A stretch of DNA of 64,000 bases from IMG/VR virus record IMGVR_UViG_3300025011_000016; one strand, given 5' to 3'. The translations under genes were made by a program, and so were the position numbers. The notes beneath the pieces are model-generated. The model was given only the letters and a program-made list of their open reading frames with translations, was not told where the DNA came from and did not search any database. Origin of the DNA: a virus (Duplodnaviria; Caudoviricetes). Of the stretch, positions 19,944-27,298 are shown one piece after another. Each line of letters starts with the position of its first letter. Position 1 is the first letter of the stretch.

Positions 19944-20091
19944 AAAGTGAAGACTATGCGAATATAAAAGAGGGAGATTCTGGCGGATATCCGCCAGCCC
20001 TATTCGCTTTTTGGATCATAATGATTTTGAATTATATATTATCTTATTAGTTAGAGTACATATTATAAAGAGAAAGAGGAGTGTGGTAATA

Positions 20092-20883
20092 ATGTTATTA
20101 TTATTTAAAGAGAGTGAACGAGGTCTATTTTCTAAAATCAACAATCGGGGTAAAATCGTTAAACCGGCAACTAATTCAGGTATAACTAAACCTGGCTATG
20201 CCTTAGTAGATAAACTAGATGAGAAGGAAAGGACTATTTTTGCATCCGGAAATAGTTTAGTTTTCGATCCATTACCTGTTATTGACGAGAAATTTATCAT
20301 AGAGACTTTTAAGTTCCATTCTCAGGGGCATATTGTAAATAAGATTCTTCTGGCTGATGGAATAACTGAGGCTATACGATTTACAGGGAAATCCGAAGTT
20401 ATTGGATTCGTTAATAATGAAATGTTAACCCTCGATTATACTGATGAATCTACTCAATATAAAGTAATCGGCGACATAACAGATCAATACGAAATCATCT
20501 ATGATTCAATAGTTCCGTATCTGAATAACTACTACTATCAATCGGTTGATATTGATGACTTTAAGTTTACACTATCTAAACTTGCGCCCAGTATTATTCA
20601 TTCCGACTATTCGATACTTATCCCCTGTAATATATATGGGGGACTGCATTATAGTATTGGAAAATGGATGTTTCCTGTTTGTATCGATTCAAACAAAGTT
20701 AATATCTTAGCATTGACTAATTTATCTGAAATTTTAAAAGAAATCAAAATTCATAATACTATGATCCTGAATACCTGGAAAAAGTATGGTTTCGATATAT
20801 GTAATAAAAATATGCGTATATTTTCTGACATACTAAACCGGTTAAAAATACTCTCTGGAATTCAAGAATTAAAGGAGAAGTGA
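20092..20883 (+). CDS. Hypothetical protein
   Basis: ATG at 20092 with RBS gaggag is preferred over the TTG at 20011. Confidence 0.65.
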   Translation: MLLLFKESERGLFSKINNRGKIVKPATNSGITKPGYALVDKLDEKERTIFASGNSLVFDPLPVIDEKFIIETFKFHSQGHIVNKILLADGITEAIRFTGKSEVIGFVNNEMLTLDYTDESTQYKVIGDITDQYEIIYDSIVPYLNNYYYQSVDIDDFKFTLSKLAPSIIHSDYSILIPCNIYGGLHYSIGKWMFPVCIDSNKVNILALTNLSEILKEIKIHNTMILNTWKKYGFDICNKNMRIFSDILNRLKILSGIQELKEK

Positions 20884-20890
20884 TAATGAA

Positions 20891-21322
20891 ATGAAATTAA
20901 TTAAATTTGTTAAAGAATGTACTCAAGAGGATGTAGTCAAATACTTCGTGGAACGAAACGATGGTAAATTTGACTATATTAAATGTAATGTATCCAAAGA
21001 AGGAGTTGTAAAGAAAAGTAAATATCTTGCTGAAGGATTAAGCCAGTCTAGTGTTGGTATCGAAATAAGACACGGGCTTTTAAACCGAGGTTATACTGAA
21101 ATTATATCAGCTAATATGACTGGTGATGCGTCGATGTTACTTGGACTATGTAATGTCCCTCATATTAATATGAAACCAGAATATTTCCTTCCTGAGGTGC
21201 TTATATCTTCTGTGAAAAAGAAATATACACCGGTTATTCATTTAACTTTACCTTCAAAAACGTTGGAGAAAAACTCTATACCATGTCATCCAAAAGAAAT
21301 GAAAAATGAGGAGGATATTTAA
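20891..21322 (+). CDS. Hypothetical protein
   Basis: 143-aa ORF with RBS aaggag, in an operon. Confidence 0.65.
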   Translation: MKLIKFVKECTQEDVVKYFVERNDGKFDYIKCNVSKEGVVKKSKYLAEGLSQSSVGIEIRHGLLNRGYTEIISANMTGDASMLLGLCNVPHINMKPEYFLPEVLISSVKKKYTPVIHLTLPSKTLEKNSIPCHPKEMKNEEDI

Positions 21323-21323
21323 A

Positions 21324-21659
21324 ATGAAACTAATCCCAGCTTATGATTGGACTATTGTTGAAAATGTATTACTCGAAGAAGATGCCCGAACTAATTATAT
21401 AAAGAACACTACGGTTGCAACTAGTTTAAAAGAAGTTAGAAAAGTCTTAAAGAATTATTCAAGAAATAATATCTCAATGCATACTAGAGGATTTATAGAC
21501 CTCTATTTAGATAATATGTCGTTATTATCTAAAACCCAAATTGTTAATGATGGAAGTTACAGGAATTTCGTATTGGGTGTGCGGCCCGATAGAATTCAAG
21601 AAACTGGTTGCATTAAATCAGGATTTCCTATGTATAACTATCAAGAAGTATTAACCTAG
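21324..21659 (+). CDS. Hypothetical protein, paralog of 21830..22354
   Basis: Shares MKLIPA and K(T/I)QI(V/C)NDGSY with the next gene. RBS gaggagg. Confidence 0.6.
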   Translation: MKLIPAYDWTIVENVLLEEDARTNYIKNTTVATSLKEVRKVLKNYSRNNISMHTRGFIDLYLDNMSLLSKTQIVNDGSYRNFVLGVRPDRIQETGCIKSGFPMYNYQEVLT

Positions 21660-21829
21660 ATATCTTGCTAGTGCTGAAGTGATATTTCTAAATTTAACGA
21701 TGGAACGGTGGAGTGATATCTTACGAGATAAAGGTAGGGGTTGTAATAAGGCTTATCTATTTATGCTTCCAGAGGATAAGATTGCAGCCATAATTAATTC
21801 TCGATAAAGAAAGGGGTGTTGGATACCAT

Positions 21830-22354
21830 ATGAAAAAGAAATTAATACCAGCCGTTTGTGAAACTAACTTATTCAAACGGCCATTTTCAGTTGAAGAACA
21901 AATTGATATTCAACGGAAAAATACCCGTAAATTCTCTAGGAGAGATACCGTGAAGATAATTCTATCATTTCTAGAACGTAATGTCATAACCGATATTGAC
22001 AGAGAAATATTTAATAAAATTCTTGGGGATACTAAAATACTAGATAAGATTCAAATTTGTAATGATGGTTCATATCTTAATGGGAGAATTTACTATAAAT
22101 TGGATATTAACGGACCATCTAATAATAGTAACATTATTGTCGATGGGGACTATTGGTATCGATCATCTATACAACCGGATATAATTACTAAACTCAATTT
22201 TATGAAAAATAACTTTGAAGTAATATATCTACAGTGTATAAGTCATTTTAGATCTTTCTTTGAACTCAGAATGCATGAATTCATTCCGTCATGCCCAGAT
22301 CATGAAATAATTACACATGTATCATTTGAACGTAACTATAAAAAGGTAACATAA
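21830..22354 (+). CDS. Hypothetical protein, paralog of 21324..21659
   Basis: KKLIPA and KIQICNDGSY. RBS aaagggg. Confidence 0.65.
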   Translation: MKKKLIPAVCETNLFKRPFSVEEQIDIQRKNTRKFSRRDTVKIILSFLERNVITDIDREIFNKILGDTKILDKIQICNDGSYLNGRIYYKLDINGPSNNSNIIVDGDYWYRSSIQPDIITKLNFMKNNFEVIYLQCISHFRSFFELRMHEFIPSCPDHEIITHVSFERNYKKVT

Positions 22355-22358
22355 CCTT

Positions 22359-22397
22359 AAAAATAATAGACTAGCTTAATTGCTAGTCTATTATTTT
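22359..22397. terminator. Bidirectional terminator
   Basis: aaaataatagactagc-ttaatt-gctagtctattatttt between convergent genes. Confidence 0.85.
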
Positions 22398-22406
22398 TTT
22401 TAAAGT

Positions 22407-22791
22407 TTATCCACCATGATGAATATCGTCATAAACATCACCTGGAATTGTCAATATTTCATCAGGCATAATATCAGTAACAGCTATTAAATCATCACCG
22501 ACTAATTGACAATTTGGATTTTGATCATATTGAATATGCAAACCTAAATAATTTACCCAATGATTTACATATAAGGGACTTACTATTTCACCAGAATTTA
22601 TTTTTTTACTAGTATAGAATGTCATTTTCCCATCTTCATCCCATTTACTATATATTGAATTCGGAAGTGATTCTACACCAACACCTTCTTTGATAGGTTC
22701 CCATGGTTTATTAGTATAAATTTCTTGCAATTTTCTTTTTAATTCAATTAAGACTTTATTGCCAAACATGGTTAATAGAATACTAGGAGTC
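22407..22791 (-). CDS. rpoB: RNAP beta subunit exon 7 (C-terminus with SET-like extension)
   Basis: Completes AT|G and continues TPSILLTMFGNKVLIELKRKLQEIY, in frame with the ORF 22407..22769. Confidence 0.8.
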
Positions 22792-23202: not shown

Positions 23203-24422
23203 CTTTATATTCATACATGTCCATAAGCATGTATAAGTTCACATATGGAACTTCCCTAAGTTTCCTTAGGATACTAGACTATATCTTCATCTCTTAATAA
23301 GGTAATTACTTCTTAGATAGAGATGCTTCTTATTTCGATTTAAGGGGATTTCACCCACCCATTTAGGCCCTACTCCTATTGTGTATTTCAACACTAAAGG
23401 ATAGTCGTTGAACGATATGTTGTAAGACATTCTTTATATATACCTTTATATAATTTACCCTGGTTTAATTTTTTTAACATATTTTTTAATTTTTTTGAAT
23501 CATAATCAAATTTAGGTAATATATCTTTTATACGTATACCTTGAATCAACATATTACTCATCTCAATAATATCTTCTTTACTATAAGTTTTATAATATAT
23601 TTTATCATTATCCCATACATACAAATCACTTATAGCTCTCCAACTTTTTCTATGTTTAATTTCAGATAACATAGATAATATATTCGGTCTATCTTCCCAA
23701 TGAAATATATTAATTATTTTTGTTAAACTATATCCCAATACAAAGTATTTACATATTTGATGTACTTCATCGTTTGTAAAGAATGCTTTAAAGTGTCTGT
23801 CACAATTCTCATAAAGGTTATTCTTAGCGGCGTGTGCCTTATTTTCATTAGCAGTCACCCATTCTAAATTATCAACCCTATTATTTAATTTATTACCATC
23901 TATATGATTAGCCTCTAACTCTTCTATAATATTATTGGGTAATGGATTAAAATGGATCAATACCAAACGTTGAACTGAAAATTTTTTGTACTTCTTATTA
24001 TCTACCTCTAAAGCAACACGACAATATCCTTTTTCATTACCGGGGTTATTAAATCCTAATATTTTATTTCGTTCAATGTTCTTTACCCTACCATGATCAC
24101 TAATCATATACTTAGGTTTGATATTTTTATACACTATATCTTTCCATTGCTCATGGTCAGTTACAATATTTATAAATAATTTCATAGAAACACCTCTTTA
24201 ATTTTTATATTAGATATACGTTTAGCCATATATTATTAGTTATTTTTCTTACAACACATTCGCTGCGGATCATCCAATCTTTATCATTATTACTTATACT
24301 AGGTTAATTACTCCCAGTCATTAATATAAAATTAATTAGTAGATAGAGCAATAAGGATATCCCCGCAATTAAAGAAGTTTTTTACTAATATATCACTATA
24401 CTAGGGAGACAAACTGTATGTA
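23203..24422 (-). mobile_element. Group I intron 5 (1,220 nt) with homing endonuclease
   Basis: P1 ggagau/gucucc, core elements, terminal G at 23203. The stem arms 23415-23427 and 24247-24259 enclose the HNH ORF. Confidence 0.9.
23394..24185 (-). CDS. NUMOD4-HNH homing endonuclease
   Basis: WKDI...YMISDHGRVKN (NUMOD4) and NHIDGNKLNN...NLEWVT..EN..H (HNH). The stop codon lies in the intron core. Confidence 0.88.
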   Translation of the reverse strand: MKLFINIVTDHEQWKDIVYKNIKPKYMISDHGRVKNIERNKILGFNNPGNEKGYCRVALEVDNKKYKKFSVQRLVLIHFNPLPNNIIEELEANHIDGNKLNNRVDNLEWVTANENKAHAAKNNLYENCDRHFKAFFTNDEVHQICKYFVLGYSLTKIINIFHWEDRPNILSMLSEIKHRKSWRAISDLYVWDNDKIYYKTYSKEDIIEMSNMLIQGIRIKDILPKFDYDSKKLKNMLKKLNQGKLYKGIYKECLTTYRSTTIL

Positions 24423-25148
24423 ATCTCCAATCCCGAGCACGTCATTATACTTAATATAAAATTCAAATAAAACTCCTTGGTCCACTACAGTACCTTTAAC
24501 TTTACCATCCTTAGATTCGATTTTTTTAGTGGGTTCGTTCATCATAATGCCACATTTATATATAGAATCCCCTTTATCATATTTATTGAGAACATTTTTC
24601 TTCTTATTTATTCTAGTATAATAATCAGATACAATTTTTCTCAATGAGGGACTTAACTCTTCTAGTTCAACCGTAGTGTAGATCTTGATATCTACAATCT
24701 CACCAGAATACTTAGTTTTAATAGGCGTTTTCCCTAATGATTTAATATCTTCTCGTAATTCCTTACCAATAGAATCTAAAAATTTATTTAATGAGTTGTC
24801 ATCAAAAGAAACTTCGAACCGGATAAGTTCATCTGAAACTTGAACTTTCTGCCCTATCTCAACCATATAGTCAACATTCGCATTTAAACCTAGAGCAACA
24901 GTTTTTTCCATAACAATGTCTGCCGCCATTTCTCTACCCAATTTCTTTGTTATAAAAGCAGAATCTTCAAAGGTAGAATATGTTGATAAACATGCAACTT
25001 TTTGTAATGATCCAATATTAAATCTATTACCAGTTATTTTACTATCAGTAAAGAATTTACTATCCGATGCAAGTATATCTTTTTGTTTAAATTTTTGACC
25101 TTTAACTAGATTACATGTTAATTTATTTGATAGATAGAAACCCCCAGC
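24423..25148 (-). CDS. rpoB: RNAP beta subunit exon 5 (726 nt)
   Basis: AGGFYLSNKL...YSTFEDSAFIT...TKYSGEIVDIKIY...VLGIGD. Matches beta-subunit regions (ED and GDK motifs). Confidence 0.88.
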
Positions 25149-25329
25149 CATTATATTCATATAGATTATAAACCTATACAGTTCTCAAATGAACTTCCCT
25201 AATGTTAATTAGGATACTAGACTATATCTTCATCTTATAAAGATGATCCCTATTTCGATATATAAATATATCTACGAGTTCTCACTCTAGTCGTTGAACC
25301 TGTCTTATAGTAATATAGAAGATTATAAG

Positions 25330-25340
25330 TATATATTATA
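25330..25340 (+). promoter_or_regulatory. Early promoter motif TATATATTATA inside intron 4
   Basis: Exact match to the motif upstream of the early operons. Confidence 0.6.
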
Positions 25341-25377
25341 TTAATAGATAATAAAATAAAGGAGCCAAATAATTACT

Positions 25378-25440
25378 ATGTTCCACGTTATTATATTCTT
25401 TATGTTGCTTCGTATTCTCAGTCGTTTAGGTAAAAAATAA
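25378..25440 (+). CDS. 20-aa peptide MFHVIIFFMLLRILSRLGKK inside intron 4, antisense
   Basis: RBS aaaggag upstream. Hydrophobic segment with a basic tail. Too short to be sure it is translated. Confidence 0.35.
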   Translation: MFHVIIFFMLLRILSRLGKK

Positions 25441-25457
25441 TTAGGGAGTGTTTTACT

Positions 25458-25823
25458 ATGATTACACCAAAGGATATTTTAATGAACTTAATTCAAACTG
25501 CACAAGACGATGAATTATTTCAAGAAAATGCCATTGAGTTAACCAACAGATTTTTCTATAATCGATTTCTTAGTGTCTTAAAACAATATAACGGTGATGA
25601 GGCTAAGGCATATGACGCCTTCATCGTAAAAAAGAATCTATATCTCTTCAATTTATATATTGAGGAGTTCATTGATTTACAGCGTTCCACTTATCAATCT
25701 ATGTATCCATCACAATGGACTGAGAATCCATATAATATGGTTTTACGTAAAGAACTCAGACAGATTCATCATTATCTATGTGCCGACCCAAGAATACTTG
25801 ACATGCCATCATATCACGGATAA
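25458..25823 (+). CDS. Unknown 121-aa protein inside intron 4, antisense
   Basis: RBS agggag. No HNH, GIY-YIG or LAGLIDADG motif seen. Confidence 0.7.
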   Translation: MITPKDILMNLIQTAQDDELFQENAIELTNRFFYNRFLSVLKQYNGDEAKAYDAFIVKKNLYLFNLYIEEFIDLQRSTYQSMYPSQWTENPYNMVLRKELRQIHHYLCADPRILDMPSYHG

Positions 25824-25983
25824 TCTATTAATACTATATGGGTGATTTTATATCACCTCTCTTTTTTTACTATAAGACTTGGCTGCGGATTGTCCAATCT
25901 TTATTATATAAAGCTCTAAGGAGTTTCCCGACAATTAAAGGATATTCTTTATACATTCACACATATAAAGGGCATTTTAGTTT

Positions 25984-26215
25984 ACCATTTTTAACTACTT
26001 TAGTTGAAGTATCAATAGCTTGTATAGAATTGTCTTTATATCTAATAATAGTTAAACCATTAGCATCATTAACTTCTTCTACAATACCATCTTGTTTCGC
26101 CACAATAACGAAGTCATTTGATAAATGATATTGAATAACTTGTTCCGCACCATTAGATATTAAAACAGGTGATGATTTTACAATAGGTATGATATGCTTC
26201 GATTGTTTACTGGCC
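25984..26215 (-). CDS. rpoB: RNAP beta subunit exon 4 (232 nt)
   Basis: (M)ASKQSKHIIPIVKSSPVLISNGAE...FVIVAKQDGIV...VVKNG. Confidence 0.88.
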
Positions 26216-26503
26216 CTTTCATGCACATGAGTTATTAGCACATGCAGTTCTCTTACGAACTTCCCTAACTTTCATTAGGATAATAGACTATATCTTCGTC
26301 CTTTATTTTTTTTATATAAAGGAGTTTCTTATTTCGATACATAAAGTATCTACGAGTTCACACTCTAGTCGTTGAACCTTCCTCTTATAAAGAGACTTGG
26401 CTGCGGATTGTCCAATCTTTATCTTATAAAGCTCTAAGGAGTTTCCCGTCAATTAAAGAAATGACTTTAAATATATTACTATACTTATGCGACAGTATTA
26501 TTC
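26216..26503 (-). ncRNA. Group I intron 3 (288 nt, no ORF)
   Basis: Perfect P1 ugcgau/gucgca, core elements, terminal G at 26216. Confidence 0.9.
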
Positions 26504-26523
26504 ATCGCAGTTCTTGTACTATC
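26504..26523 (-). CDS. rpoB: RNAP beta subunit exon 3 (20-nt micro-exon)
   Basis: gat agt aca aga act gcg at = DSTRTA(M), restoring RD-DSTRTAM-ASKQ. Confidence 0.85.
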
Positions 26524-27298
26524 CGTAACCATTCATGTTTCCATAAATGACAGACTATATCTTCATCTACATAGTTACATGTTTAGATGTCCTCCATTTC
26601 GGCTTATAAATAAACCTACGAGTTTACACTCTAGTCGTTGAACCTTTCTCTATAAAAAATAGTAATATCATACTCTGAATTTATATATCATATACTTGAA
26701 TATAATAAAATAATGGAGTTGAATTGATATGATATGATAATAAATGATATCCATAATATAACAGACTTCGATCAGTATATAGAATTCTATACTCAATTAA
26801 CTAATACATATGGTAAACTAAATCATTATATCTCCAAAATATTTGAAAGGCGTGGAAATATCAGTATTGACCATCTACCAATTAAATCACATAAACTTAA
26901 ACTCGGTACTCTTTTATATCATGTATCCGAAACTAAATATGATTTTTTAAAATCATCATTTAAAAGTAGAGATGAATTTTTATACTCTGAAAATAGAATA
27001 TATTTTACTACAGACATCGAATCATTAGAGCCACATTTTAAAAAGTATCGATATGTCTATATGTATGTAGTTACAGGTAATGAAAATACATTTATCGACT
27101 ATGAGTATAATAATAACAAATCATTCTATATATCTAATGATAAACCATTTGAAATTAAAGAGGTTCAACTTCTTTAATTTTTTTATAGAGACTTGGCTGC
27201 GGATTGCCCAATCTTTATATTATAAAGCTCTAAGGGGTTCCCCGACAATTAAAAGGATTCTTATTATGTATTTCTACATAAAGGGACAATAGTAATTT
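26524..27298 (-). ncRNA. Group I intron 2 (775 nt) carrying an antisense cargo gene
   Basis: P1 gggau/guccc, core elements, terminal G at 26524. A perfect 13-bp stem (26647-26659 / 27179-27191) encloses a + strand ORF. Confidence 0.88.
26734..27177 (+). CDS. 147-aa protein inside intron 2, antisense, possible ADP-ribosyltransferase-like fold
   Basis: RBS tggag and promoter-like tatatatcata at 26682-26692. LYHVS...RIYFTTD pattern. No homing-nuclease motif. Confidence 0.65.
   Translation: MIINDIHNITDFDQYIEFYTQLTNTYGKLNHYISKIFERRGNISIDHLPIKSHKLKLGTLLYHVSETKYDFLKSSFKSRDEFLYSENRIYFTTDIESLEPHFKKYRYVYMYVVTGNENTFIDYEYNNNKSFYISNDKPFEIKEVQLL

Follow-up and report, generated by a model that had tools for sequence, protein, structure and literature searches.

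A probable early gene cassette lodged antisense in the P6 loop of a group I intron of a phage virion RNA polymerase gene

Several described systems resemble, each in some respects, the locus studied here. Morons are promoter-gene-terminator units found between conserved genes of lambdoid phages, and in fungal mitochondria a group I intron of rnl contains rps3, a sense-strand, essential and organellar gene that does not encode a nuclease. In the introns of phage T4, ORFs placed in group I intron loops have their own promoters and a temporal class unlike that of the interrupted gene; these ORFs encode nucleases on the sense strand and are expressed at middle or late times inside genes of the early class. 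In nuclear rDNA, a group I intron may hold a protein gene on the strand opposite the intron (position L2066; PMC9548176), and the genes in question encode His-Cys box nucleases of eukaryotic rDNA. In phage AR9, the gene g190 and its own early promoter lie within an intron of the late gene g189, which encodes the beta subunit of the virion RNA polymerase (virion RNAP), and g190 is expressed independently of this host gene (PMC5312081). For this very gene, then, the presence of an early unit within an intron has already been published.

Our analysis concerned a stretch of 64,000 nucleotides (the window) from an AT-rich, uncultured AR9-like jumbo phage found in groundwater metagenomes on contigs of up to 272 kb. 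The RNAP beta gene of the window is about 30-40% identical to AR9 g189 and is, to judge from its sequence, the orthologue of this virion-RNAP beta gene. The reading that we favor, and that we consider probable, is that the P6 loop of one of its putatively self-splicing group I introns houses an autonomous, moron-like early transcription unit, although the interrupted gene itself is late.

The likeness to AR9 g190 consists of an orthologous, late, multi-intron host gene and of an intron-borne gene with its own early promoter, built on the same TATATATTAT core. However, g190 is a sense-strand HNH homing endonuclease, whereas the cargo in the window is antisense, lacks a nuclease domain and is followed by a terminator of its own; its family also includes free-standing genes. 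Compared with T4, the situation is the reverse, that is, an antisense and probably early non-nuclease gene inside a late gene. In contrast to the nuclear rDNA introns, the host is a phage protein-coding gene and the cargo is not a nuclease. The cassette shares with morons its self-contained organization, with promoter and terminator of its own, its variable presence and its accessory gene, but classical morons lie between genes, whereas this unit lies inside a ribozyme loop within an essential gene. It resembles rps3 in being a non-nuclease gene in a group I intron and differs from it in being antisense and variably present.

The features of the locus are listed below; positions are those of the window, and a slash marks a splice junction in the peptides given in the text.

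~30515-22800, minus strand: RNA-polymerase beta subunit gene, from PHROG hits.
25984..26215, minus strand: exon 4, upstream of the intron, 232 nt, ending in ...VVKNG; PHROG RNAP beta match and tblastn continuity with relatives.
25149..25983, minus strand: group I intron "intron 4" (site D), 835 nt, in the virion-RNAP beta gene; Rfam RF00028 halves and core alignment.
24396..25148, minus strand: exon 5, downstream of the intron, starting with AGGFYLSNK at 25148; PHROG RNAP beta match, E 8e-49.
Minus strand: predicted ligated exon sequence after removal of intron 4, ...AAAAAUGGU joined to GCUGGGGG; junction taken from intronless relatives.
25302..25313, no strand assigned: P6 stem arm (3' strand in the intron RNA), GTCTTATAGTAA; perfect 12-bp complement of 25867-25878.
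25867..25878, no strand assigned: P6 stem arm (5' strand in the intron RNA); perfect 12-bp complement of 25302-25313.
25330..25340, plus strand: putative early (virion-RNAP type) promoter core, TATATATTATA; over-representation and match to the AR9 consensus core.
25378..25440, plus strand: 20-codon ORF, hydrophobic with a basic tail, with AAGGAG at 25359-25364; coding status unsupported.
25458..25823, plus strand: 121-aa gene, P0001, of a conserved family; GGGAG (25444-25448) nine bases before the ATG.
25840..25868, plus strand only: intrinsic terminator, a 7-bp hairpin (25840-25858) followed by CTCTTTTTTT; terminator scan.

Rfam searches revealed three complete group I introns in the RNAP beta gene of the window and the separated halves of three more. 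AR9 g189 is annotated as six joined pieces and has five introns. The three split introns have one large insert each, always in the P6 loop between the AAUCCGCAGCC and GUUCAACGACUA core elements: a sense HNH/NUMOD4 ORF, an antisense ORF of 147 codons and the cassette of intron 4. In the latter, RF00028 was recovered as two separate halves (25855-25933 at 26.6 bits and 25197-25328 at 26.9 bits), which fall under the Rfam cut-off of 50 bits for the sole reason that the insert splits them. Once the cassette is removed, the remaining core of 282 nt aligns over its full length to a cargo-free paralogue (26263-26513) that itself scores 82.8 bits, and the conserved catalytic core of group I introns (P3-P9, with the Q and R elements) is present. 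The last base of the 5' exon is U (25984), the last base of the intron is G (25149) and the P1 pairing is weak, with 3 bp as read.

The junction could be fixed as ...VVKNG/AGGFY... because the two exon peptides abut, in frame and with a gap of 0, in the intronless loci L024, L026-28 and L031-32 and in more distant relatives (labels of this kind denote the related loci compared here; L010 is AR9 and L033 is RCUE01000010.1). A 5' splice site after ...CPLY was rejected, since the pairing found there is P2 and the intronless relatives put the junction at NG/A. The start of exon 4 (AM/A) was read off the sequence by comparison with L023, and the 3' end of exon 5 is approximate, within a few tens of bases of 24396. 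Exon 5 shares 40% identity with AR9 g189 and 68-83% with metagenomic relatives. In AR9 g189 (L010 5060-5340), a cargo-free intron lies about 10 nt downstream of the position of the NG/A site of the window, within the GGF codons, the two sites being close but not identical. We also observed in the window a micro-exon of 20 nt (DSTRTA plus two bases; 26504-26523) between two adjacent introns, the second of which is missing in L023 and L025, where the exons are contiguous.

The original prediction had placed a perfect 12-bp stem at both ends of the cassette and had located its elements on the strand opposite the intron, in a loop equivalent to the one that holds the HNH gene of intron 5. The stem was confirmed and is also the P6 of the intron; it encloses 553 nt, with the elements on the opposite strand, and all of them lie in the P6 loop, as does the HNH/NUMOD4 ORF of the neighboring intron. 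When the whole 835-nt intron RNA was folded, 12 of 12 pairs formed at probabilities of 0.85-1.0 despite the insert. Moreover, the stem shows one compensatory change, with T-A in the window and C-G in L011, L014 and L025. The loop would tolerate the insert because the long P6 stem keeps it away from the core, and intron 4 is predicted to splice with the insert in place.

An exact early-promoter motif had also been claimed inside the stem, and the motif at 25330-25340 proved to be one of seven exact copies of TATATATTATA in the 64-kb window, against 0.36 expected (19-fold); a count of seven was reached in none of 100 shuffles. All seven copies are intergenic, on the plus strand and upstream of plus-strand ORFs, at 30-218 nt from the nearest listed one (exactly 48 nt in four of the seven), and several come directly after terminator-like hairpins. 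In AR9, dRNA-seq gave the early-promoter consensus AAATATATATTAT-N6-G(+1), the use of which was ascribed to the injected virion RNAP; this enzyme was reported to be sensitive to single deviations (PMC5312081). The first ten bases of TATATATTATA are identical to the core of this consensus, and a G is found at +1, six bases past the ten-base core, in five of the seven local copies. The cassette promoter deviates from the AR9 consensus in having AAG for the upstream AAA and an A at +1, with a G one base later. By analogy with AR9, the cassette is probably early and its RNA is predicted to start at ~25346-25347. The same promoter motif heads the antisense cassettes of L011, L014, L025 and L033.

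Elsewhere in the window, early promoters are often directly preceded by a common terminator-like hairpin, GAATACG...CGTATTC, with a T-run (33740-33776, 34500-34542 and 36440-36477); together, terminator and promoter form a module that recurs between early genes. Unlike AR9 g190, the sense HNH ORF in the next intron has no TATATATTAT upstream (24186-24260), and its expression signal is not obvious.

Two ORFs, each with a ribosome-binding site, had been predicted within the cassette. The larger one, P0001, is at the predicted place and belongs to a family for which an exhaustive HMMER search of 1.8 billion protein representatives returned 17 representatives at E<=1e-3. Family members have about 110-140 aa, with two longer exceptions, and share the conserved block RF-x-NELKQYN-x-DE-x-KAYD-x-FIA-x-KNL...YIEE...RK-x-MR. 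The closest relative of P0001 is the copy in L001 (63% identity), and a dN/dS of ~0.18 between the two indicates purifying selection. AlphaFold2, run with the family alignment, confidently modeled the protein as a four-helix bundle with no strand (pLDDT 87.5). The 121-aa ORF is, on this evidence, a real gene.

For the smaller ORF, the location was as predicted but comparative support for coding was not found. Its ATG lies 48 nt from the start of the promoter motif, as in three other early genes, and the spacing from AAGGAG to ATG is long (13 nt). The ORF is absent from all related cassettes (L011, L014 and L025), and among the related loci compared there is no homologue of the 20-aa peptide or of the leader, with no similarity beyond the promoter. 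One may speculate that it is the stub of a past replacement of cargo.

Homologues of P0001 were found antisense in the P6 loop of an intron at the same site in L011/L029/L030 and in L014/L057, where the exons are ~63-70% identical to those of the window and the cargo is 44-47% identical. In L011 and L014 the layout of the cassette consists of TTATATATTAT, a ribosome-binding site, the ORF and a hairpin with a run of eight U against the P6 arm. L025 carries a cassette of the P0001 family with the same layout and closely similar flanks in the intron at RD/D (site B; L025 1340-2150), and a sense NUMOD4 ORF at its NG/A site. This placement points to intron transposition or to an exchange of cargo between paralogous introns. 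Own promoter, own terminator and variable presence, the properties of a moron-like unit, characterize the cassettes of the window, L011, L014 and L025.

Other family members are free-standing (L001, L017 and L019-L022), and the more distant ones are ordinary genes of co-directional phage arrays; the few kb of sequence compared on their contigs contained no detectable intron. In L001 (1-2595, compared with window 20011-22769), the copy closes an early operon that is syntenic with window 20011-21659; a bidirectional terminator comes next, and then a convergent homologue of window 22407-22769. The copy is thus beside the polymerase gene, not inside it. It is annotated as starting at TTG, where a ribosome-binding site is not evident; AAGAGG is followed by an ATT in the same frame. 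In the maximum-likelihood tree, the window copy is sister to the free L001 copy (99/97) and the site-D copy of L011 is sister to the site-B copy of L025 (98/98), pairings that imply no fewer than two shifts of context in a small clade.

The closest relative of the window, L023 (83% exon identity), has an empty intron of 355 nt at the same site, and many other relatives, among them the intronless loci named above, have no intron at NG/A. The empty intron of L023 (646-1000) is a mosaic, with P1-P2 like those of intron 4 and P5-P9 like those of the first and the HNH-bearing introns of the window, suggesting recombination among paralogous introns. All eight contigs with the gene were 100% identical to the window over 25100-26000 or over the part of it that they cover. 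Among the DNA and RNA sequencing runs searched, those containing the window sequence were DNA runs from groundwater and estuary only.

P0001 is not the only kind of cargo. A second antisense cassette of the same design is present in intron 2 of the window, with a 13-bp P6 stem:

26524-27298, minus strand: intron 2, with the second antisense cassette.
26682, plus strand: putative promoter of the intron 2 cassette, TATATATCATA, a motif match with one mismatch.
26734-27177, plus strand: orphan ORF of 147 aa, inside the 13-bp stem.

The 147-aa ORF has no homologue outside its own phage and no Pfam or PHROG match, and its single-sequence model reached a pLDDT of 37. At the NG/A site of L033, an unrelated antisense ORF of 125 aa is found with the same promoter and a terminator. 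In fact, four introns of the L033 gene (460-5500) hold antisense cassettes, whose promoters end at 2322, 3315, 4695 and 5491, and each cassette begins right after the TAGTCGTTGAAC element and the P6 arm. Their ORFs are unrelated, with 253, 230 and 103 aa in the first cassette, then 125, 119 and 132 aa. The exons upstream of the first cassette and the 5' half of its intron were not found within the 2.3 kb of sequence there, and therefore either the insert is very long or the gene is split there. None of the cassette ORFs of L033 and of intron 2 matched a Pfam family. The constant feature is the slot, not the gene. The earlier idea that the intron serves as a protected landing site for early genes agrees well with these data as regards the landing site, with the P0001 family and unrelated cassettes in the same loop and with empty and intronless alleles; such a site may also offer protection.

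The cassette terminator, which was missing from the first listing of features for intron 4, has a free energy of -8.4 kcal/mol (z -2.0), and its T-run abuts the distal P6 arm. In L011, L014 and L025, the corresponding position is taken by hairpins of different sequence, each followed by 7-8 U (z -3.2 to -3.4). There is no T-run in the other orientation, so the hairpin should not stop late transcription of the polymerase gene. The early RNA is thus predicted to extend over ~25346-25866 (~520 nt), wholly within the insert and with no core sequence. It had been proposed that an early antisense transcript could enter the intron core and regulate splicing. Such read-through is disfavored because the predicted RNA stays inside the insert and because the four cassettes of the family all have their terminator at one position, just short of the P6 arm. 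The antisense placement itself may keep the late pre-mRNA free of the translation signals of the cargo, and the intron free of ribosomes.

A broader version of that proposal would take the early antisense RNA as the functional product and the ORF as secondary. The RNA would pair with the loop insert of the late pre-mRNA, or read through into the core, and in this way delay or tune splicing and, with it, how much virion-RNAP beta is made. Over about 520 nt, the early RNA would indeed be a perfect complement of the intron RNA, at least eight cassettes of the clade share the antisense orientation, and many early RNAs of AR9 last to 20 min (PMC5312081). Nevertheless, we consider this explanation unlikely, given that terminators stand ahead of the core in the four cassettes of the family, that the ORF is under purifying selection and also occurs free-standing, that the cargo is unrelated between introns and that the intron of the closest relative, L023, is empty.

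Copies of the P0001 family from different lineages share only 44-47% identity and yet have stayed in introns of a single gene, which could mean that the family is functionally linked to the intron or the RNAP and is more than a hitch-hiker. We see a small chance that two things hold together, namely that the virion-RNAP introns of this clade are vehicles for diverse early accessory genes spread by homing in co-infection, and that the 121-aa family in particular is tied to the intron or the polymerase, as a non-nuclease mobility factor or an antisense timer.

That the protein acts in mobility or maintenance of the intron, either as a new, non-canonical homing nuclease or as a targeting or repair cofactor for a nuclease encoded elsewhere, would explain its residence in a loop that normally holds homing endonuclease genes. 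The next intron has its HNH gene in the same loop, the patchy distribution of the family, both intronic and free-standing, is that of homing endonuclease genes, and a few charged residues are invariant (R36, D53, E69 and R101). However, no nuclease domain was found by Pfam, PHROGs or PDB-profile searches in any of the 18 family members, in agreement with the lack of a nuclease motif noted at first, and in the same profile run the ORF of the neighboring intron matched HNH_3 and NUMOD4. The prediction had itself raised the possibility that the ORF is a divergent homing nuclease fragment; homology and structure searches gave no profile or fold match to a nuclease, which argues against such a fragment of any known class. 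To our knowledge, the known homing-nuclease families contain beta structure, whereas the confident model of P0001 is all-helical and without strand. Additionally, the family occurs in introns at two different target sites, and several unrelated ORFs occupy the same slot. A role in mobility is, in view of all this, quite doubtful.

Searches for the function of P0001 in Pfam, PHROGs, PDB profiles, Foldseek (PDB, BFVD and AFDB clusters), VIA-align wide and the ESM Atlas returned only helical-bundle noise; the best structural matches, at Z ~8, were generic helical bundles in the range expected for unrelated bundles. A HEPN-like Rx4-6H reading of the C-terminal RKxxRxIxH was dropped, since the His is not conserved in the family alignment. 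P0001 is most likely an accessory early protein, a small binder of some host or phage component.

The persistence of the family in introns of one gene might also suggest a maturase-like or chaperone factor that aids folding or splicing of the insert-bearing intron. This is very improbable, as the protein would be early and the intron RNA late, free-standing members are found on contigs that show no intron in the few kb compared around them, and sister introns with other cargo, or with none, do without P0001. The leftover-like 20-codon ORF and long leader might suggest that the cassette is a relic in decay that no longer has a function. This reading has hardly any chance of being right against a dN/dS of ~0.18, an intact frame, an intact promoter, ribosome-binding site and terminator, and a layout conserved across diverged phages.

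What the data show directly is the anatomy of the unit, the selection on its coding sequence, its conservation and its shifts of context; timing, transcript ends, splicing competence and protein function are inferred. If the cassette is an autonomous early unit lodged in the intron loop, as we favor, the sequence of events would be the following. Just after infection, the injected virion RNAP would bind the TATATATTAT core and start transcription ~6-7 nt downstream, producing a plus-strand mRNA of ~520 nt that is confined to the loop insert and stops at the hairpin and T-run before the P6 arm. From this early mRNA the 121-aa four-helix protein would be translated. Late in infection, the beta gene would be transcribed off the other strand, with the 12-bp P6 stem clamping the 553-nt insert outside the catalytic core, and intron 4 would splice, joining ...VVKNG to AGGFY.... 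The cassette, which has moved between introns and free-standing positions, would be cargo, with no part in the splicing or homing machinery. It would probably spread with the intron when homing endonucleases encoded elsewhere, e.g., the HNH of the next intron, mobilize closely similar introns.

Promoter-bearing ORFs in phage group I introns were already known from T4 and from AR9 g190, and antisense nuclease genes are known from nuclear rDNA introns. What is new is the combination, i.e., a non-nuclease cargo on the opposite strand, in a complete unit with a terminator, with several unrelated cargos recurring across a phage clade. In the literature searched, the coverage of which is incomplete, no antisense cassette with a non-nuclease cargo was described for a phage group I intron.

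An ORF within a phage group I intron is taken to encode a homing nuclease, which is also what annotation pipelines expect. In this clade, one intron loop is repeatedly used as a slot for complete and probably early units on the opposite strand, and the proteins encoded by these units, none of them a recognizable nuclease, are of at least six unrelated kinds. Once lodged within an essential late gene, a cargo gene would not easily be lost by imprecise deletion, and if the cargo travels with the intron during homing, introns would be a route of accessory-gene exchange between phages. The conserved family of four-helix, probably early proteins is a candidate for tests of host takeover or counter-defence, and the insert-bearing, empty and intronless alleles provide a natural set for the study of how much cargo a ribozyme loop tolerates. 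Phage introns, it appears, can carry ordinary accessory genes.
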